Origin: a virus
Lineage: Duplodnaviria; Heunggongvirae; Uroviricota; Caudoviricetes
IMG/VR virus record: IMGVR_UViG_2657245112_000033
Strand: one strand, 5' to 3'
Length of the DNA: 7,153 bases
In this document: piece by piece, positions 1-7,153 of the stretch
How positions within the stretch are numbered: the stretch's first letter is position 1
Layout of the letters: each line of letters begins with the position of its first letter
Made by a program: the position numbers and the translations under genes
Notes under the pieces: generated by a model
Database searches by the model: none
Told to the model about the DNA's origin: nothing
Seen by the model: only the letters and a program-made list of their open reading frames with translations

Positions 1-162
1 TAGCTATAAATACATCTAAATACCTATATCCCTTCCCTTATGGCTAGATTGCGAGAAGTGCTTAACGCGATTTTCAGCGCCCCCCGATCTGGAAAATCCA
101 GAATCCCCAAATATCAGCAAGGAATTTTCTTGCGTAATCAACATCGTTTTTACCTATTAAAT

Positions 163-189
163 CATTACACAGAAAGCCTTTCTGTAATG
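163..189. repeat. Near-palindromic site carrying the ATTACACAG motif (ATTACACAGAAAG-c-CTTTCTGTAAT)
   Basis: 12-bp arms are reverse complements apart from one bulged base. The left arm contains the same ATTACACAG motif that recurs through 505-1900. Confidence 0.6.
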
Positions 190-442
190 TCTCTCACTAA
201 ACTTTCACTAAACACGAGAATGATCGGTTTTATGTCGGATCAGATGCTAGAAACAGCACCACGTCTCACAAGGGCTGTAAGCGATGAAACCAGTGTTTAT
301 GCGGGTGCAGGTCAAAATATAGGCCAAAATCCATTTAACATAATAATCGTAATATGCACTAAGGAACACATAGAACGCCTTGAGTTGATGTATCAGGGGA
401 AAAGTGATGGATTTTTTACGTAGGAGCACGAGAGGGCTTCTG

Positions 443-470
443 TTGACTTTTGTGTGCTATGAAATATAAT
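443..470 (+). promoter_or_regulatory. Sigma70-like promoter, TTGACT-16 bp-TATAAT
   Basis: TTGACT at 443-448 and a perfect TATAAT at 465-470 with a 16-bp spacer. It points rightward into the repeat region, where no ORF of 60 aa or more follows. Confidence 0.5.
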
Positions 471-504
471 TAAAAGTTTTTTGTTTTTATCGTGTGATGT
501 AGTG

Positions 505-951
505 GATTACACAGGGGAATAGATTAAATGGTGTTCTGTTTATACAGGTTTATTTGTTAGATCAACAATTTGGCATTTCTAAACAGATGTTTGAACGTTG
601 CCAAATGTCTTGACAACACAAGAAAAGGGCTTGCTATGCCACGCATTACACGAAATAAGGCTGTAAAAACAAAATAAATTTTAAAATTTGCACAAACAAG
701 AAAACTCATTAAGAAACAAGCAGAACAATTTTTAGCCAACAATTTCTGATGGTGCTCTGTAAGCCGCATTACACAAGGATTTGCGAAAGTGATGTAAAAG
801 TGAAGAAAGTAAGAATTGAACTTTTAAGCTACTTTTTTCATTGAATTTTTAGTATGGAATTACACAGGAATAAGTTAGGGATATTCTATGATTTACACAG
901 GGAATATAGGGGGGATTATGGCACACACATAGAAAGGCATTACACAGAGTG
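505..951 (+). repeat. Dispersed direct copies of the ATTACACAG(G)RAATA motif (6 copies)
   Basis: Copies at 505-522 (gattacacaggggaatag), 644-660, 767-780, 858-874 (aattacacaggaataag), 891-910 (atttacacagggaatatagg) and 938-951. All share the TTACAC core in the same orientation. Confidence 0.75.
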
Positions 952-966
952 CTATGTGACAAATGG

Positions 967-1072
967 ATGTAACGAGAGGTTACATTCAGCTATCTGAAAT
1001 GCTCTTTGTAAGAAAGTTGGTAGTAACGATATGTTACATAGACTAATTATTGAATGTAACGATATTACACAT
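967..1072. promoter_or_regulatory. Three tandem inverted-repeat operator-like sites (ATGTAAC-N5-GTTACAT)
   Basis: 967-985 atgtaac-gagag-gttacat (perfect 7-bp arms); 1021-1040 tagtaac-gatat-gttacat; 1054-1072 atgtaac-gatat-tacacat; plus a half-site at 1086-1095. The arm sequence GTTACAY is the TTACAC-family core. Confidence 0.55.
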
Positions 1073-1097
1073 CGGAAGATGATTGAATGTAACGGTA

Positions 1098-1138
1098 GCT
1101 CACAGTGAGCTAGGGGTAGGTCATAGTGAACTACCCCC
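1098..1138. repeat. 13-bp perfect palindrome GCTCACAGTGAGC plus about 1.5 units of the 22-bp iteron family
   Basis: gctcacagtgagc at 1098-1110 is its own reverse complement. It is followed by taggggta-ggtcatagtgaactac-ccccc, which matches the unit repeated at 1355-1436; ggggtag and ctacccc form a 7-bp inverted repeat. Confidence 0.7.
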
Positions 1139-1146
1139 ACAGAATT

Positions 1147-1198
1147 CTGTTACCCCTATCAAGTCTGATACCCCTATCAAAACTGATACCCGATAAGA
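1147..1198 (+). repeat. Three tandem 18-bp repeats (CTGWTACCCCTATCAA)
   Basis: ctgttacccctatcaag (1147-1163), ctgatacccctatcaa (1165-1180), ctgatacccgataag (1183-1197, degenerate); period 18 bp. Confidence 0.7.
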
Positions 1199-1208
1199 AT
1201 AAATAACA

Positions 1209-1309
1209 CCTAGGAAATGATTTCCGATCTATTTAGGAAGTAACCTAGGAAGTGGTTTCCTACCTACTTAGGAAATGAGTTCCTACCTACCTAGGAAATG
1301 AGTTCCACC
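1209..1309 (+). repeat. Four to five direct copies of a 15-bp motif TAGGAARTGRKTTCC, each with an internal GGAA-N5-TTCC inverted repeat
   Basis: Copies at 1211-1225, 1246-1260, 1269-1283 and 1292-1306 (the last two identical), plus a degenerate copy at 1234-1245; spacing mostly 23 bp. The architecture resembles plasmid centromere or iteron arrays. Confidence 0.7.
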
Positions 1310-1331
1310 AATACTATAATTAAATAATATA

Positions 1332-1354
1332 AATAATATTCTTTATACTATATA
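1332..1354 (+). repeat. 23-bp perfect direct repeat, copy 1 (aataatattctttatactatata), left of the iteron array
   Basis: Identical to 1482-1504. AT-rich and contains a TATACT -10-like hexamer. Confidence 0.85.
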
Positions 1355-1436
1355 GGTCACTGTGACCTAGGGGGTAGGTCATAGTGAGCTAGGGGGTAGG
1401 TCATAGTGAGCTAGGGGGTAGGTCACTGTGAACTAC
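1355..1436 (+). repeat. 22-bp tandem iterons, about 3.7 copies (GGTCAYWGTGASCTAGGGGGTA)
   Basis: Units at 1355-1376, 1377-1398 and 1399-1420 (the last two identical), plus a truncated unit at 1421-1436. The first unit contains the perfect 13-bp palindrome ggtcactgtgacc. AT-rich tracts lie on both sides. Confidence 0.85.
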
Positions 1437-1481
1437 AATAAGACTATTAATAAAACTATATTAGATTATTAATTAGATCAT

Positions 1482-1504
1482 AATAATATTCTTTATACTA
1501 TATA
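1482..1504 (+). repeat. 23-bp perfect direct repeat, copy 2, right of the iteron array and its AT-rich tract
   Basis: Exact match to 1332-1354; the flanking bases differ on both sides, so the repeat is exactly 23 bp. Confidence 0.85.
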
Positions 1505-1509
1505 TATAT

Positions 1510-1930
1510 GATCTTTTGCCTTCCGGCGTTAGCTTCACTCTCTGGCAAGCAGCCTTACTCCGCTACCTTTCGGGCTTCGTGGCTGGCCCGTTCCGCTCAC
1601 ACCGAAAGCAAAGCGTTACTTTCTTCGTGTAACTATCGTGGCGGTAACGCCCACGAAGAAATACTATTGCGCTGTGCGCAGAAGAGTAATCACCTAACCA
1701 ATCATACTGATTGCTTATGTGTAACTCTCTACCTCTTAATTCCACTTCCTACATTTAATAACTCTCGTTATTCTCTGTAGTTGTGTAATTACTCGAAGAG
1801 AGCGGCTAAAGCTCAATTACACTCTGCTTTCCTCGTGTAATTTCACTAAGCCTCAATACAATTTCACTTCCTACATTCTGTAGTCGTGTAATTGTTTTCG
1901 GTGGAAAAGCCAGAGGCGACACCGAAAGAG
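1510..1930. other. GC-rich island with dense hairpin potential; candidate structured RNA or single-strand DNA initiation element
   Basis: Visibly more GC-rich than its AT-rich flanks. Predicted stem-loops: 1621-1660 (outer ttcttcg/cgaagaa around a GC stem capped by a GUAA tetraloop), 1668-1680 (tgcgc-tgt-gcgca), 1749-1780 (ctaca...tgtag enclosing aataac-tctc-gttatt) and a shorter paralogous module at 1862-1893. The 7-mer ctctggc (1540-1546) is complementary to gccagag (1909-1915), and caccgaaag occurs at both ends (1600-1608, 1920-1928). Inverted TTACAC copies lie at 1626-1633, 1717-1725, 1782-1790, 1834-1843 and 1885-1893. Confidence 0.35.
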
Positions 1931-1962
1931 AATTCTGATCTTATTAATCTTATCTATCTTAG

Positions 1963-2001
1963 TTATCTTACTTACTTATCTTACTTACTTTATCTACTTT
2001 A
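1963..2001 (+). repeat. 13-bp tandem repeat (TTATCTTACTTAC, about 3 copies) inside a G-depleted AT-rich tract
   Basis: ttatcttacttac at 1963-1975 and 1976-1988, with a degenerate third copy at 1989-2001. The plus strand from about 1939 to 2020 contains almost no G. This could be a DNA unwinding element. Confidence 0.65.
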
Positions 2002-2515
2002 TTATTAATAATATCTTTATAAGCTCTGTGTAGCTCTCTGACGCAAGAAACAGCATTCAGGAAGGGAATCACCTTAGAAAAGTGTTCTTTGCGTCATAAT
2101 GTGTTTTATGAAGGATTCAGAGGTGTTTCATAACAGAGATGTATAGAGGATACTTTAGGTAATTAAAAATAAGGGGTCTAAATGCTTCTCTAACAACATT
2201 AAGCAGGGTAGGGAATGGAAACGCATTGCCTACATATAATAAACTCACTACAGGGCTTTACAGAGCGTTTTATAAAGTGACTCTCTGTTTTATATCTATC
2301 ATCATCTAACAAATACAAAATAAGCCACTTAAATAAGCCTCTGGCGAGCTAAACAGCCATTAGATAAGGGAATGTATTGCTTTTATCAAAATCTCGTTAG
2401 AACGCGTTTTAGAGCGTTTTAGACAATAAGGAAGAATAGCACTACATAGGAGAGCACGAATTGCTAAGAAAAAATGTAAGTGCATGAAAAAGATCAGATT
2501 TTTTATGAAAAGGTA

Positions 2516-2544
2516 TTGACAAATGTTTCTTTATATGTAATAAT
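2516..2544 (+). promoter_or_regulatory. Sigma70-like promoter with extended -10 (TTGACA-17 bp-TGt-AATAAT), probable promoter of the 2656-4950 operon
   Basis: TTGACA at 2516-2521, TG at 2536-2537, AATAAT at 2539-2544. The leader downstream contains a short hairpin (aagcc-gtca-ggctt, 2603-2616) and a T-run at 2625-2635 before the first ribosome-binding site. Confidence 0.55.
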
Positions 2545-2655
2545 AGGTATTAGAGGGACAGAAAAACATTCTTCTCTAAATAATCAAAATCAATGCACTT
2601 TGAAGCCGTCAGGCTTGCAAGGTGTTTTTTCTTTTAACTGAATAAGGAGTTTTTT

Positions 2656-2844
2656 ATGAAATGGTTTACACCTGAGCACGTCGTCCAGGCATTTAAAAAA
2701 GGTGAGCTTACACGCCACCAAGTAGTAATGAATCGTAATATGGCAAGGAGTCGAGGTTATCCAGAGCGAGCAGCTTGCTTCAATGAAGCACTCAAGATTA
2801 TTGATGAACTAAGAAAAAATGAAAAAGAATCTGAAACAGAGTAA
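2656..2844 (+). CDS. Hypothetical small protein (62 aa)
   Basis: ATG at 2656 preceded by AAGGAG (2644-2649); first gene after the predicted promoter; no family recognised. Confidence 0.6.
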   Translation: MKWFTPEHVVQAFKKGELTRHQVVMNRNMARSRGYPERAACFNEALKIIDELRKNEKESETE

Positions 2845-2863
2845 AGAAGAGAAGGAGAAAACT

Positions 2864-3034
2864 ATGAGCGAAACTACAGAAAAGAAAAGACAACCACGCA
2901 CTTGCTTTCATATTCCTGATGAAGTATTTCAGGTGTTATTTAAAGAAGCCAGAAGTAGACGGATCACTGTCACAGATTACATTCTTGATATGTTGAAAAG
3001 AGAGGCTGAAACACTCTCAAATAAAAGCAAGTGA
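2864..3034 (+). CDS. Ribbon-helix-helix-like (CopG/Arc-type) small DNA-binding protein, about 56 aa
   Basis: The track ORF is 2819-3034, but the ATG at 2864 has an AAGGAG site (2852-2857) and lies after the upstream stop (2842-2844), while 2819 has none. The segment RTCFHIPDEVFQVLFKEARSRRITVTDYILDMLKRE fits a strand-helix-helix pattern. Confidence 0.5.
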   Translation: MSETTEKKRQPRTCFHIPDEVFQVLFKEARSRRITVTDYILDMLKREAETLSNKSK

Positions 3035-3087
3035 TTTTTATCACCATAGTAGCGCCATAGAGCGTGATTACATCAAGGAGATTTTTA

Positions 3088-3780
3088 ATGATTAACCAAC
3101 TAACTTTTACAAAACACTATGACACGTTTGATAATGTATCAAAGATTTATTCTGATAAATTCCCTCAAGGAAAAGATTTAGATCTATTACATATTGTGCT
3201 TTATTTTCGATTCCTTAGTTATCAGGAAAACAACCTTAATTGTTATGAAAGTCACGAAACATTAGCTAAGATTTTTAAGTCTTCAGCGTCAACAATTAAA
3301 CGTAAGATAAACGATCTTAAAGAGATGGGATTATTAGAAACATCCCCACATCCTGATCCGTATATTTCATCTTTGATTTACAATGCTCTCCCTCTCACAG
3401 ATGCACATATTACTCCCCCAGGAGAATCATCACTCTCTGATCTTTCTGAGGCAGAAGAAGCACAGGAACAACCTAAAGGCCATAAACAGCCTTCTTTTGA
3501 TGTTCTTGATGATGATTGGGATACGCCTTTACCGTGGGAGACGGAAGAAACACCTGTTTCATCAAGTGAAAAGGTAGCTAATGATAATGAGGAGGATGTG
3601 TTAAAGAATTTTGCCTCTCTTATTATCAAGCAGAAGAATACTAGAACAGGAGGAGCATCATTTATAGAATTTGCAACATCGTTAGCCTATAAGCACAGGT
3701 TAAAGCTACCAAATGGTATTGAGGCATATTTTGCTAAGAAACATCCCAAAGTATACGAAGACTTTGATATTCCATTTTAA
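3088..3780 (+). CDS. Winged-HTH-like DNA-binding protein with acidic C-terminal region ending in an SSB-tail-like DFDIPF; possible replication initiator or organiser
   Basis: The track ORF starts at GTG 3064; the in-frame ATG at 3088 has AAGGAG at 3075-3080 with a 7-nt spacer. The N-terminal part (LHIVLYFRFLSYQENNLNCYESHETLAKIFKSSASTIKRKINDLKEMGLLE) fits a winged-HTH pattern. The C-terminal half is acidic (DDDWDTPLPWETEE) and the last residues are EDFDIPF. Confidence 0.7.
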   Translation: MINQLTFTKHYDTFDNVSKIYSDKFPQGKDLDLLHIVLYFRFLSYQENNLNCYESHETLAKIFKSSASTIKRKINDLKEMGLLETSPHPDPYISSLIYNALPLTDAHITPPGESSLSDLSEAEEAQEQPKGHKQPSFDVLDDDWDTPLPWETEETPVSSSEKVANDNEEDVLKNFASLIIKQKNTRTGGASFIEFATSLAYKHRLKLPNGIEAYFAKKHPKVYEDFDIPF

Positions 3781-3791
3781 TAAGGAGGGTT

Positions 3792-4070
3792 ATGATTCAA
3801 TATTTAGTAAAAAATCAAGTAGACAGAATTCAGTGTAACGACACAGGAAAACGCATCTACGAAACACTTGCTTACCTCTATAAAGGAAAGCCAACACCGC
3901 TAAAATATAGCGATGTGTTACATCGAGCAGGGTGCTCTGAAGATGGTTTAAAATTCTGGCTGAAACAGCTATCAAACTTCGGTGTTATAGAAATTAAAGA
4001 ATTATCTTTCTCTACATTCAATCTCAAAAGACTAGATAAAGAAATAGAATTCATCTATTCCACTCTCTAA
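3792..4070 (+). CDS. Small winged-HTH-like protein (92 aa)
   Basis: ATG at 3792 preceded by AAGGAGGG (3782-3789), 11 nt after the upstream stop. The segment IYETLAYLY...KYSDVLHRAGCSEDGLKFWLKQLSNFGVIEI follows the same helix-turn-wing pattern as the upstream protein. Confidence 0.65.
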   Translation: MIQYLVKNQVDRIQCNDTGKRIYETLAYLYKGKPTPLKYSDVLHRAGCSEDGLKFWLKQLSNFGVIEIKELSFSTFNLKRLDKEIEFIYSTL

Positions 4071-4111
4071 AATCTCTCTATGTAATTAAAATATAAAAGG
4101 AAAACATTATT

Positions 4112-4231
4112 ATGATAGTAGCTATGTATTGGTTATTGTTCTTTCTCACGTTAGAAACATACTTCGGGGTGTTTTCCTTTAAAAGAAAAGGAAAAGTAAA
4201 TAATGGCAAAAAGAAAAAACAACGTTGTTAA
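4112..4231 (+). CDS. Candidate small hydrophobic peptide (39 aa, MIVAMYWLLFFLTLETYFGVFSFKRKGKVNNGKKKKQRC)
   Basis: Not in the ORF track because it is under 60 aa. ATG at 4112 with AAAAGGA (4096-4102) upstream. One hydrophobic segment followed by a lysine/arginine-rich tail. Its 3' end overlaps the start of the next gene out of frame. Confidence 0.25.
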   Translation: MIVAMYWLLFFLTLETYFGVFSFKRKGKVNNGKKKKQRC

Positions 4232-4613
4232 GAAAATCGGGGATTCAGCTTCTCTTCTAAGTAAACCTAAATCTATTCTAAGACGCAAAGACTTTAAAGA
4301 GCTAGTTACGCTCACCAAGCAAAATAGCGCCCCTGGCGAATGGAAAACAGAGATCATAGAACATTCTCCCTCTGTGCCTTGCGGAGATGAATTTAACGCC
4401 TTACAAGAAATCTTATCTTCAACACCTGGCGTATTCTGGAAACCTAGAAAAAGAAAAGAGTATATCGTTGATAGCTCTGATTTACGCAAATACCAGATTT
4501 TAGGATTTGAAGACTATAACCACTACGTTGGTTATCTCGCCACAAATGGCCTAAATAACTTAGTTCCAGACTTCCAGATTCTAGATAATGCTGATCACTA
4601 TGGAGACTTTTAA
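4203..4613 (+). CDS. Hypothetical protein (136 aa) with basic N-terminus
   Basis: ATG at 4203 with AAGGA (4188-4192) upstream; the N-terminus MAKRKNNVVKK is basic; no family recognised. Confidence 0.6.
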   Translation: MAKRKNNVVKKIGDSASLLSKPKSILRRKDFKELVTLTKQNSAPGEWKTEIIEHSPSVPCGDEFNALQEILSSTPGVFWKPRKRKEYIVDSSDLRKYQILGFEDYNHYVGYLATNGLNNLVPDFQILDNADHYGDF

Positions 4614-4614
4614 T

Positions 4615-4950
4615 ATGAACAAAAACACGTATGACACAATTTACTCACTAATTAATTATTATGAGGATGATTACCTTCTGCCTTTAAACCGCGCTGAACT
4701 TGAAGCATACAAAGAAAACACACCAGCGTCACTAAATGAGGCGTTTAAACACTGGGATTTAGCTGTGAATGCCTTTGAGCACCTCTCTAAGCGTGTAGAG
4801 ATGCTCTGTAAGCGCGAAAACGCATACCTGACAGCCGATCAGATATGGGAGCTATCAAACTGGATAGAAGATATCGAATCTGATGTTCGCTATGTGGGAG
4901 ATGGACTTGTCGAACTCGCTCAACGCTTAGGCACTATCACAGAAGAATAA
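4615..4950 (+). CDS. Hypothetical protein (about 111 aa)
   Basis: The track ORF starts at 4588. In-frame ATGs at 4600 and 4615; the one at 4615 follows GGAG (4602-4605) and the upstream stop (4611-4613), so 4615 is preferred but uncertain. Confidence 0.55.
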   Translation: MNKNTYDTIYSLINYYEDDYLLPLNRAELEAYKENTPASLNEAFKHWDLAVNAFEHLSKRVEMLCKRENAYLTADQIWELSNWIEDIESDVRYVGDGLVELAQRLGTITEE

Positions 4951-4979
4951 AAAAAGCAACAAAAAAGTTGTAAAATATC

Positions 4980-5008
4980 TTGACATTCCATCTATTATAT
5001 GTTAATAT
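4980..5008 (+). promoter_or_regulatory. Sigma70-like promoter with extended -10 (TTGACA-17 bp-TGt-TAATAT)
   Basis: TTGACA at 4980-4985, TG at 5000-5001, TAATAT at 5003-5008. Same architecture as the promoter at 2516-2544. Confidence 0.5.
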
Positions 5009-5146
5009 AATTATATGGGGTGATTATTTTTCCTTTATTGGTTCGATATTAAAAATTCTTCTTGTCGTTAAAGGGGAGTAAAATCTCCGCTCCCCGCTTC
5101 TCCTCCTTAAGTAAATACTGTGTCATTATTACCTCTTTTTTCCTTT

Positions 5147-5176
5147 GTTATGCATACATCTTGGAGTATGCATAAC
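5147..5176. promoter_or_regulatory. Perfect 11-bp inverted repeat GTTATGCATAC-N8-GTATGCATAAC (operator-like)
   Basis: Arms at 5147-5157 and 5166-5176 are exact reverse complements. The half-site GTTATGCA recurs at 5242-5249 next to a second small inverted repeat (caactt-aa-aagttg, 5248-5261). Confidence 0.6.
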
Positions 5177-5205
5177 ATAGGGTAATTACATAGGTACAAG
5201 TTAAT

Positions 5206-5238
5206 AAAAGGCGGCTCTAAATGCTGCCTTTTATTTTG
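5206..5238. terminator. Rho-independent terminator hairpin, possibly bidirectional
   Basis: aaaaggcggc (5206-5215), loop tctaaat, gctgcctttt (5223-5232): about a 10-bp stem with one G-U pair, followed by ttttatttt. The A-run upstream gives a matching U-run on the opposite strand. Confidence 0.6.
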
Positions 5239-5299
5239 CCCGTTATGCAACTTAAAAGTTGTATTTCTTACTTTAAACAAGGTAACAAGGTTTATATAA

Positions 5300-5512
5300 A
5301 TGTTGTTCTTAAATGATAAAGAGCAAATCATCAAGTATAAAGATGAAATGCTGAAAATAAATCCACAAATTACCGAAATGGTAGCTAAATACGCTGGGTG
5401 TTCTGTAGAAGAAGTAGAAAGATGTGTTGAAAAATATTTTTCTCCTTCTTCTCCGTCTACACCTTCCCTTAATGAATTAATCAAATTAAAAGCTAAGGAG
5501 ATTACTAAATGA
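5300..5512 (+). CDS. Hypothetical small protein (70 aa)
   Basis: Its stop overlaps the next start (ATGA at 5509-5512), suggesting translational coupling. Weak ribosome-binding site (aagg near 5288). Contains a Ser/Pro-rich segment SPSSPSTPS. Confidence 0.5.
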   Translation: MLFLNDKEQIIKYKDEMLKINPQITEMVAKYAGCSVEEVERCVEKYFSPSSPSTPSLNELIKLKAKEITK

Positions 5513-5871
5513 TTATTGATTTAGACACTCTGTTTCCAGTTCGAAAGACTTTCACAGATATTGTAAGTTATTGTACTGATCCGTTTGCCTCTGTAGAAAG
5601 CAAGGTTTTTGCTTCTCTTCCTGCTGATGTTGAATGCGGCGACTTGATCACCAGCACTGGCGCTAAATATGTATCAGGAGATGATATCTATGTTGTTATG
5701 AGTGAATTTGTAACGGCTGGAGAAAACAAACCTGTAGATGTTTTACGTAGCAATGCTGGGCTTGTATGCATCAAAGCTGATGCGCTGAATGCTGTAAGTG
5801 AAGCAGCAAAAACAGCATTAATTAAAAAAGGCTTCCAGCTTGAAGGGTTCCATTCTGTTTTCACTTCTTAA
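5509..5871 (+). CDS. Putative head decoration or accessory head protein (120 aa), assigned by position only
   Basis: AAGGAG at 5495-5500, ATG at 5509. It sits immediately upstream of the major capsid gene, where lambda has gpD, but I see no clear sequence similarity to gpD. Confidence 0.55.
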   Translation: MIIDLDTLFPVRKTFTDIVSYCTDPFASVESKVFASLPADVECGDLITSTGAKYVSGDDIYVVMSEFVTAGENKPVDVLRSNAGLVCIKADALNAVSEAAKTALIKKGFQLEGFHSVFTS

Positions 5872-5889
5872 TAAAAGGAATAATAATAA

Positions 5890-6918
5890 ATGATTCTAGG
5901 CAATGATTACGTTGATTTGATCCCTCTGTTCCAGACACACAGCACGCGTAACTTCCTGCTCTCTACTCTTGATTTTACGGATTCTGTAGGGGTTACATCT
6001 CATAAAGTAGCTGTTTCCCAGCTTGTCGAAAGCAACGAATCTCTCTTTAACAAAGAGACAAGCCGTTTTAGTTCTGAACACAATGTTACTAAGCGAGAAC
6101 AAGGTAAAGAATGGCTGATCGAGATCCCTTACTTCCTGCGTGAAGATGTGATCCGTCCTTCTGATGTTCAAGGCAAACGTAAACCTGGCACTGATTTCCA
6201 GGAAACACTCACTGATATTTATGCGGAATATATCGCTAAACACCACGTAGCGTATCAGCGTACAAAAGAGAGCGTATTGGCTGCTTCTTTGTTCTCGGGC
6301 AAAACTTATACACCGAAAACTGATGATGTTCTTATCGAATGGGGCAAGCTGTTTAACGTATCAGCTATGAAAGCCACTGTGAACGCTTCCAGCACTGACA
6401 CCACGAAGATTTTTAAAGAATTTGATCAGATTGCTACTGACATTATCGAGAAAGCACAAAGCCAGGCGTCTGCTGTAGAGCGTATTGTTGTTTTCTGTAA
6501 ACCTGAAGCCTTCTCCGCAATTCGATTCTCTGCTGGTATGGCAAACGCATTCCAGTATGTAAGCCCACTGGAAGAGGGGAACGTTGTGTATCAGCGTCGT
6601 GACCTGCTGCCAGGGGTGACAGCGTTCACTATCCCAGGAACTAACATTGATGTTGTTAAACTGGTAGATCCGCTACACCTTGCACATATGACTTCTGATG
6701 CGGTTGCGATTCCGAAGTTTGCTAAAGGCTCTAATGTATATCAGAACATCTACGGGGCTGCTTCCAGCACTTTTGAACTGATCAATGCCGCTCCTGCTGA
6801 GGTGTATAGCTATAGCTATGAATCTTCTCGTGGTGATGCTGTTAACGTTGTTACAGAGAATAGCCAGATGGTTGTAAACCACGGTGTAGGCTTCTCCGTT
6901 CAAATCACTGTTAAATAA
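5890..6918 (+). CDS. Major capsid protein, lambda gpE family (342 aa)
   Basis: AAGGAA ribosome-binding site before ATG 5890. Length matches gpE (341 aa). Several segments resemble my recollection of lambda gpE: SVLAASLFSGKTYTPKTD vs AVSAVLKGKYTMTGE, ASAVERIVVFCKPEAFSAIRFS vs ASGVVNIIVFDPKGWALFRSF, DLLPGVTAFTIPG vs NFLPDNTMVLG, and C-terminal GFSVQITVK vs EFVSVQLA. Recalled, not aligned. Confidence 0.85.
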   Translation: MILGNDYVDLIPLFQTHSTRNFLLSTLDFTDSVGVTSHKVAVSQLVESNESLFNKETSRFSSEHNVTKREQGKEWLIEIPYFLREDVIRPSDVQGKRKPGTDFQETLTDIYAEYIAKHHVAYQRTKESVLAASLFSGKTYTPKTDDVLIEWGKLFNVSAMKATVNASSTDTTKIFKEFDQIATDIIEKAQSQASAVERIVVFCKPEAFSAIRFSAGMANAFQYVSPLEEGNVVYQRRDLLPGVTAFTIPGTNIDVVKLVDPLHLAHMTSDAVAIPKFAKGSNVYQNIYGAASSTFELINAAPAEVYSYSYESSRGDAVNVVTENSQMVVNHGVGFSVQITVK

Positions 6919-6958
6919 TATTTAACGTGTAATAGAGGCGTGGCGCTGAGAGATCCCC

Positions 6959-7153
6959 TCATAATTTCCCCAAAGCGTAACCATGTGTGAATAAATTTTG
7001 AGCTAGTAGGGTTGCAGCCACGAGTAAGTCTTCCCTTGTTATTGTGTAGCCAGAATGCCGCAAAACTTCCATGCCTAAGCGAACTGTTGAGAGTACGTTT
7101 CGATTTCTGACTGTGTTAGCCTGGAAGTGCTTGTCCCAACCTTGTTTCTGAGC
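6959..7153 (-). CDS. Possible 3' end of a convergent gene running off the window (C-terminal 64 codons, unknown function)
   Basis: The minus-strand frame entering at 7153 is open for 64 codons (...GMEVLRHSGYTITREDLLVAATLLAQNLFTHGYALGKL) and stops at 6959-6961. It is absent from the track because no Met start lies in the window. The composition is protein-like, but a chance open frame is not excluded. Confidence 0.3.
   Translation of the reverse strand, partial: AQKQGWDKHFQANTVRNRNVLSTVRLGMEVLRHSGYTITREDLLVAATLLAQNLFTHGYALGKL

Follow-up and report, generated by a model that had tools for sequence, protein, structure and literature searches.

Gene organization of the island

The DNA analyzed here, hereafter the window, is the 7,153-nt IMG/VR record IMGVR_UViG_2657245112_000033, whose numbering is used throughout. 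Over positions 1-6937, many STEC strains of serogroups O26 and O111 carry the same sequence in their chromosome with 100% identity, and in strain E2865 the window lies within a ca. 12.4-kb island between tRNA-Thr and a tyrosine integrase. Positions 6938-7153 are the end of IS10 (ISVsa5/IS4 family) located just after the capsid gene, and identical islands elsewhere lack IS10. The island consists of about 3.7 kb of gene-free, repeat-rich DNA and of genes encoding small proteins, a 230-aa HTH_36 Rep, a major capsid protein, a tape-measure-like protein, a tail protein, and an integrase. A strong sigma70 promoter (2516-2544) is located ahead of the first gene.

No terminase or portal gene was annotated on the island, and none of the proteins tested resembled either of them. 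Since these genes were not found, the island is most likely a phage satellite. Downstream of the window (L001 19221-21798), a 609-aa tape-measure-like protein and a tail/baseplate-like protein are encoded besides the capsid protein of the island, which is an unusual gene set for a satellite. Related mosaic islands were found in 676 of the 5426 complete E. coli genomes (ca. 12%) at several integration sites; a capsid-protein scan of the genome contigs returned only one locus. We found no published description of this island family in the literature searched, in which the only relevant paper was a study of the ICP1 nuclease Odn (PMC8263062). At the left end of the window, an ORF encoding an unrelated 127-aa protein (40-423) stands where sister islands (L002 3986-4525) carry a serine recombinase of the resolvase/invertase type (179-183 aa; Resolvase, PF00239), which occurs in two variants with 61% identity.

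Repeat arrays in the origin region

The palindromes at the center of this study are the leftmost of several repeat arrays in the gene-free DNA (Table 1). From left to right, the order is four B units, two C, one F, three D, and five E units, an AT-rich stretch, four further C units, and an AT-rich region.

Table 1 Positions of repeats, AT-rich segments, and rep in the window.
Feature	Position	Strand	Description
ATTACACR	164-171, 506-513, 645-652, 768-775, 859-866, 939-946, 1064-1071	+	Rightward
B1 unit	967-985		ATGTAAC-GAGAG-GTTACAT; perfect 7-5-7 dyad (inverted repeat)
B2 unit	1021-1039		TAGTAAC-GATAT-GTTACAT; 5-bp cores (GTAAC/GTTAC) perfect, two outer arm bases unpaired
B3 unit	1054-1072	+	ATGTAAC-GATAT-TACACAT; left arm intact, right arm degenerate and overlapping a ATTACACA site
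B4 unit	1087-1105	+	ATGTAAC-GGTAG-CTCACAG; junction unit with a B-type left arm only
Two C-type dyads (TAGCTCACAGTGAGCTA, TAGGTCATAGTGAACTA)	1096-1133		Predicted iterons cognate to the N1-type Rep of the window; repeat family D1
Single F-type unit (ACAGAATTCTGT, CCCCC before it)	1139-1150		Repeat arrayed in N5-type elements
D-type repeats (GTTACCCCTATCAA, TGATACCCCTATCAA, TGATACCCGATAAG)	1149-1197	+	Expanded to 5 copies in N4-type elements
E-type repeats (CCTAGGAAATGAnTTCC, 4-5 copies)	1208-1306	+	Repeat family D4; abuts the AT-rich region in N2-type elements
First AT-rich stretch	1307-1352		Ends in the left copy of an exact 23-bp direct repeat; repeat family D11
Four C-type iterons, 22-bp period (TAGGTCAyaGTGAnCTA + GGGGG)	1353-1435		Predicted working iterons of the resident Rep; repeat families D1 and D2
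AT-rich region (AATAAGACTATT...; GC 0.26-0.28)	1436-1510		Candidate unwinding element; holds the right copy of the 23-bp repeat
ATTACACR	1782-1789, 1834-1841, 1885-1892, 6926-6933	-	Leftward
Rep (230-aa initiator, HTH_36 winged helix)	3088-3780	+	N-terminal domain of type N1; C-terminal domain common to the family

A preliminary description of this DNA had listed three inverted repeats and a half-site in the B region. The cluster was confirmed, but only B1 and B2 are true GTAAC-N5-GTTAC dyads. B3 contains no inverted repeat with an N5 spacer, and its right arm reads as a TTACAC site. In B4, the right half is the first arm of the adjoining C-type repeat TAGCTCACAGTGAGCTA. The start-to-start distances from B1 to B4 are 54, 33, and 33 bp, all multiples of 11. 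Four phased units, of which two are intact dyads, one is degenerate, and one is truncated, thus describe the array better than three palindromes and a half-site. GTAAC-N5-GTTAC with up to one mismatch occurs twice in the window against 0.17 expected, and four same-strand GTAACG sequences fall inside 130 bp, whereas the maximum in 2000 dinucleotide shuffles was two. These controls show that the B cluster is real and non-random.

A further repeat, ATTACACR, has 11 copies in the window against 0.55 expected. Its copies converge on the origin, those at 164-1071 pointing rightward and those at 1782-1892 leftward, and it is present in every Rep type described below. For this reason, ATTACACR appears to be a separate class of site and not a set of monomer sites for the B-binding protein. 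The earlier suggestion that one protein binds both the TTACAC direct repeats and the B palindromes is therefore unlikely, as the B array tracks only one Rep type (N3). In L004, forward and reverse ATTACAC copies both shift to TTGCAC, which hints at co-variation. DnaA boxes (TTWTNCACA, up to 1 mismatch) were not enriched in the window (17 against 19.5 expected), and the idea that the TTACAC sites are DnaA boxes was rejected on this ground.

To the right of the origin and ahead of the operon promoter, most relatives keep a GC-richer block (1508-1930), which contains leftward ATTACAC sites. This block gave no Rfam match, and RNA folding of 1505-1700 was weak (z-scores of -1.8 and -2.1). An Rfam scan of the whole window returned only one sub-threshold chance match. 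Positions 1935-2001 are a run of degenerate short repeats with CTTATCT and TTACTTA units.

Conservation of the B units in related elements

We compared the B units of the aligned relatives and gathered all B units from 43 distinct loci. The consensus was WWGTAAC-GA-nnn-GTTACAY. Both arms and the spacer GA were invariant across the relatives (GTAAC.GA...GTTACA), while spacer positions 10-12 varied; B1 had GAGAG or GATGG and B2 had GATAT, GATTC, or GATAC, and GAAAG was also found. Conserved arms with variable spacers are the pattern for which a comparative alignment had been proposed as a check, and the alignment bore it out. Shared segments are 80-100% identical in this young, recombining family, so conservation of the arms is by itself weak evidence and is not proof of selection.

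The copy number of B ranged from 0 to 7 across the relatives. The odd B3 unit is kept as such in N1, N3, and N4 elements. In N3-type relatives, the final unit is a full dyad, TTGTAAC-GAAAG-GTTACAC, in contrast to the half-site-like B4 of the window. Dyad symmetry is intact in two of the four units of the window, one being degenerate and one truncated, compared with three to five intact units in N3 elements. In many apparently intact non-N3 elements, B is reduced to a single half-site. The left arm of B, that is, at least a half-site, remains beside the first downstream iteron in almost every element, whatever the Rep type.

Similar dyads also occur outside the family. IMG/VR was scanned for the exact pattern of two GTAAC-N5-GTTAC dyads separated by 18-39 bp, which gave 85 stretches, many with three or more phased copies. 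In eight unrelated viral contigs (L028, L061, L069, L077, L079, L086, L091, and L102), the dyad array lies within an O-like or DnaD-like initiator gene, the same arrangement as that of lambda ori within gene O. L023, L026, L029, and about 20 similar IMG/VR loci are low-GC prophages of ca. 38-40 kb, in which two GTAAC-N5-GTTAC dyads 21 bp apart surround a TTGAC...promoter-like sequence. In this group, the motif is a probable repressor operator. As the motif flanks a promoter in these unrelated prophages, it cannot by itself name the protein that binds it.

Pairing of Rep types with repeat arrays

The Rep of the window and its relatives match the PHROG replication-initiation and "replication initiation O-like" families. 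Rep is modular. Its variable N-terminal winged-helix domain (ca. 120 aa) occurs in at least five types, and its C-terminal domain is common to five of the six aligned Reps, the exception being the differing C-terminus of L004. The N1 domain of the window shares at most 37% identity with N3. Comparison of the 37 distinct family loci showed that every N-domain type goes with a particular dyad-containing array, located next to AT-rich DNA (AATAAGACTA...). N1, the type of the window, pairs with the C array (TAGGTCAyaGTGAnCTA + GGGGG, 22-bp period), N2 with the E array (CCTAGGAAATGAnTTCC), N3 with the B array (palindromes as at 967-1105), N4 with the D array (TGATACCCCTATCA), and N5 with the F array (CCCCCACAGAATTCTGTTA). 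Homologous AT-rich DNA lies directly 3' of the last iteron in every Rep type.

All 11 distinct N3 loci (L004, L005, L085, L104, L107, and L137-L142) have B units only, three to seven in number, abutting AATAAGACTA. The five units of L004 are spaced by 54, 33, 22, and 33 bp, all multiples of 11. L140 and L141 are hybrids in which an N3 N-domain is joined to a C-domain and backbone of the window type, and since their arrays are still B-only, B follows the N-domain of Rep. N3 loci share the DNA 3' of the array with N2 elements and with Rep-untyped elements that have N5-like F arrays; therefore, this DNA cannot hold N3-specific sites. Counted over the entire collection, 77 genomes contain the B4-B5 junction with the AT-rich DNA and 76 contain N3 coding DNA. 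The six records common to both listings carry the junction and N3 coding DNA about 1.5-2.4 kb apart. In N1 loci, all 12 distinct ones keep at least two C units, while GTAACG half-sites vary from one to five. A PDB sequence search with the N3 Rep returned nothing meaningful.

Among the records listed, which are part of each set (60 of the 82 N3-carrying records and 40 window-identical records), there was no overlap between the two, and no trans-acting N3 Rep was seen in the window's own strains. APEC E19019 has N3-type island DNA both on its chromosome (NZ_CP126937.1, L004) and on a 166-kb plasmid (NZ_CP126938.1).

Alternative functions of the B units

The preliminary description had interpreted B as a multi-operator array bound cooperatively by a dimeric repressor encoded in 2864-4070 (an RHH or the 92-aa winged-helix protein), which would silence the island. 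The units do look like sites for a dimeric protein: they are 19-bp dyads with conserved arms and variable spacers, they are phased in whole helical turns, genes for an RHH-like and a small winged-helix protein are found downstream, and GTAAC-N5-GTTAC flanks a promoter in unrelated prophages. However, 960-1100 is free of promoter-like sites, and the closest strong ones are found at 443-470 and 2516-2544. The second of these is the operon promoter; it is separated from B by about 1.5 kb and does not differ among elements having zero to seven units. Neither the three unrelated RHH types nor the presence or absence of the 92-aa protein tracks the array, and L010 shares its 62-aa, RHH, and Rep proteins with L006 yet has lost the array. 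In general, the presence and copy number of B followed neither the RHH type, the 92-aa protein, and the 62-aa protein nor the Rep type of the window. We consider an operator array very improbable. Of the candidate binders in 2864-4070, the product of 3088-3780 does belong to the family most likely to bind such sites, but B follows N3, a class that is not encoded here. The earlier observation was thus largely right and its operator interpretation largely wrong.

Even less probable is a role of B as accessory res-like sites, bound by the small serine recombinase whose gene lies a few hundred bp to the left in sister elements. In Tn3/gamma-delta res, sub-sites I, II, and III are spaced by 53 and 34 bp, and each sub-site has 25-34 bp with 12-bp half-sites and a 2-bp crossover center. 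The center spacing of B (54 and 33 bp) resembles this, and many relatives carry the 179-183-aa resolvase/invertase-type gene about 600 bp upstream. On the other hand, the B units have only 17-19 bp and an odd N5 spacer, unlike the res sub-sites. Moreover, the window, L005, and L008 keep B units without the recombinase, and neither the two recombinase types (61% identical) nor recombinase absence tracks the copy number of B.

It is also conceivable, although unlikely, that B binds a common factor (the 62-aa protein or a host nucleoid or helper-phage protein) and serves as an architectural or enhancer element of the origin for any Rep type. The B left arm persisting beside the first downstream iteron in nearly every element would fit such a role, as would the right arm of the third unit, which is a ATTACACA site of a family-wide repeat class. 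In addition, the 62-aa product of the first gene is the only one conserved across all Rep types; its homologues were found in Escherichia only and are unnamed. Against this, many apparently intact non-N3 elements are down to a single half-site, the confident model of the 62-aa protein is a three-helix bundle that matched no DNA-binding fold significantly, and DnaA boxes were not enriched. A common factor also leaves the N3-only pattern unexplained.

Proposed identity of the B units: orphan iterons of the N3 class

That B co-varies with N3 points instead to an initiator. We propose, with a probability of roughly 0.7, that the B palindromes are iterons cognate to the N3 class of a lambda-O-like winged-helix initiator in this E. 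coli island family. Each palindrome would be bound by an initiator dimer. In N3 islands, three to seven B units form the sole array, phased by multiples of 11 bp and set against the AT-rich candidate unwinding region. The island of the window is composite, with a Rep of class N1 and C as its predicted cognate array. Because its Rep is N1 with cognate C repeats, the B sites of the window are best read as orphan iterons in a composite origin and not as repressor operators. The label "orphan" follows from two findings, namely that the Rep of the window is of the N1 type and that B and N3 co-vary elsewhere (11/11 loci).

About 200-340 bp of other arrays lie between the B array and AT-rich DNA in the window, so that the direct adjacency seen in N3 loci is absent here. 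An exact 23-bp direct repeat (AATAATATTCTTTATACTATATA) at 1332-1354 and 1482-1504 brackets the module of four C units and AT-rich DNA. This bracketing makes the layout look like an N2-type origin (compare L013) fused in tandem with an N1-type origin, and the repeat is consistent with tandem fusion of two origins via recombination in the AT-rich region. No inversion between the inverted C repeats was found in the four blastn-aligned relatives (L002-L005) or in the array regions compared.

The B array of the window would accordingly be a partly eroded remnant of the swapping or fusion of origin and Rep modules, and the resident N1 Rep is expected to fire without needing it. The sites are probably binding sites in kind but idle with the resident initiator. 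An N3-domain protein acting in trans, such as the Rep of a sibling island or the phage inny chimeric nuclease described below, could still bind them. The assignment of B to N3 rests on co-occurrence, and the association could partly reflect linkage. The survival of a B half-site in almost every element could mean that it has a role independent of N3.

Taken alone, the B sites are ordinary, being the predicted iteron array of an O-like initiator; their family context is of more interest. They help to define the replication origin, and with it a five-class code of initiator domains and arrays, in a common E. coli island family whose origins appear to accumulate non-cognate arrays through module swapping.

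Similarity of island sequences to phage chimeric proteins

Short near-identical stretches link the island to coliphages of ca. 146-151 kb, and the two records that we fetched belong to Stephanstirmvirinae. One such stretch covers the leader and the beginning of rep (3047-3095) and has its counterpart in phage Mt1B1_P17, at the leader and first ca. three codons (start codon region) of a gene. The product of this gene (328 aa; L021 3042-4028) begins with an N5-like domain (82% identity) and continues with an N2-like and a further C-terminal domain. Gene 184 of phage inny (L143 5001-6104) encodes a 367-aa protein, in which an N3-like domain is followed by an N2-like domain (91%) and by the C-terminal domain shared with the Mt1B1_P17 protein. 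Identity between residues 1-140 of inny_184 and the N3 domain (L004 Rep 1-140) is 88-93%. A BI-EHEC phage protein has the N5 and N2 domains, as in Mt1B1_P17. The C-terminal domain of the chimeras matched Pfam MUG113 only at threshold; further matches were genes of T5-like and other phages that carry an annotation as homing or GIY-YIG endonuclease. A full-length chimeric gene was present in only about three to four phage records. No match to the N1 N-domain was obtained by tblastn against phages, and a PDB sequence search with inny_184 gave nothing meaningful.

The coding tail of a type-2 RHH-like gene is located just upstream of inny gene 184. The DNA preceding the chimeric genes in the phages is nearly identical to window 3047-3095 and to L004 6400-6465, which covers the rep leader/ribosome-binding region and the 3' end of the RHH gene. 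Such near-identical leader DNA implies recent exchange of an RHH-Rep 5' module between phages and islands. A 46-bp segment of the window (43-88) is 93-97% identical to about 40 coliphage genomes of ca. 146-151 kb, and its counterpart in phage Antha (L022 3001-3046) is located in repeat-rich DNA that is probably non-coding. This segment could be a shared packaging or regulatory signal.

Comparison with known replication origins and with PLE/ICP1

Lambda ori consists of several iterons of roughly 19 bp, which are inverted repeats with a short spacer, followed by an AT-rich region, and the N-terminal domain of the initiator O binds these iterons as dimers. The Rep family of the window matches PHROG O-like families, and its origins likewise combine dyad iterons, to which binding is predicted, with an AT-rich region. 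There are three differences. The island origin lies about 1.5-2 kb upstream of rep, whereas lambda ori is inside the O gene; the B units are 22-54 bp apart, in contrast to the tight tandem of lambda; and the window holds arrays for about five specificities, with a B array that is non-cognate to its own Rep. The B sites also resemble the lambda OR/OL operators in presenting several 17-19-bp dyads on one helix face, but they have neither an overlapping promoter nor a co-varying repressor gene.

In SaPI/PICI origins, Rep-specific iterons reportedly flank an AT-rich region, with a specificity that differs between islands, as described by Ubeda et al. The SaPI Rep is a helicase. Like SaPI/PICI, the present islands are integrated and encode their own initiator, and they are probably also phage-dependent and equipped with matching iterons. 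The initiator family differs, and the iterons of the present islands are dyads, compared with short direct repeats in SaPI/PICI, and several non-cognate arrays have accreted.

Another parallel is the PLE of V. cholerae, a satellite of a virulent myovirus that has RepA and three semi-palindromic iterons (PMC8263062). The phage ICP1 encodes Odn, a nuclease with a copy of the DNA-binding domain of PLE RepA, which cuts the PLE iterons, and PLEs escape Odn by altered iterons or swapped replicon modules (PMC8263062). The present islands share with PLE three or more semi-palindromic iterons and an initiator N-domain that is exchanged together with the origin as a module among similar elements. In both systems, a phage chimera joins the DNA-binding domain of a satellite initiator to a nuclease domain of the GIY-YIG superfamily, as suggested here by the MUG113 match at threshold. 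At the sequence level, inny thus encodes a nuclease-domain protein with a copy of N3, the initiator domain predicted to be cognate to the B repeats, as expected for a target of an Odn-like protein. By analogy, we hypothesize that the B palindromes are the target of the inny protein and that shuffling of Rep domains and iterons is the response of the satellites.

More broadly, and still tentatively, Stephanstirmvirinae (phAPEC8-like) and E. coli islands may be engaged in an arms race as in PLE/ICP1, in which initiator-iteron pairs of at least five classes are swapped under attack by "double-headed" origin-directed nucleases. If so, B (967-1105) and E (1208-1306) would be exactly the two arrays recognized by the inny nuclease. 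Orphan arrays could then expose the island to inny, or serve as decoys or sensors.

The two systems differ in several respects. PLE RepA is named for its RepA_N-type domain (PMC8263062), whereas the island Rep is HTH_36/O-like and had no RepA_N match in a Pfam scan at E<=0.1. The present islands are probable satellites, with these coliphages as their putative helpers. The nuclease-like domain of the coliphage proteins matches MUG113, at threshold, and not T5orf172. Finally, the coliphage proteins carry two satellite-type domains in tandem (N3+N2 or N5+N2) with 82-93% identity, in contrast to 42% for ICP1 Odn. If confirmed, this would be a second, independent case of origin-directed anti-satellite nucleases, in a tractable host and with clear predictions of which phage cuts which island.
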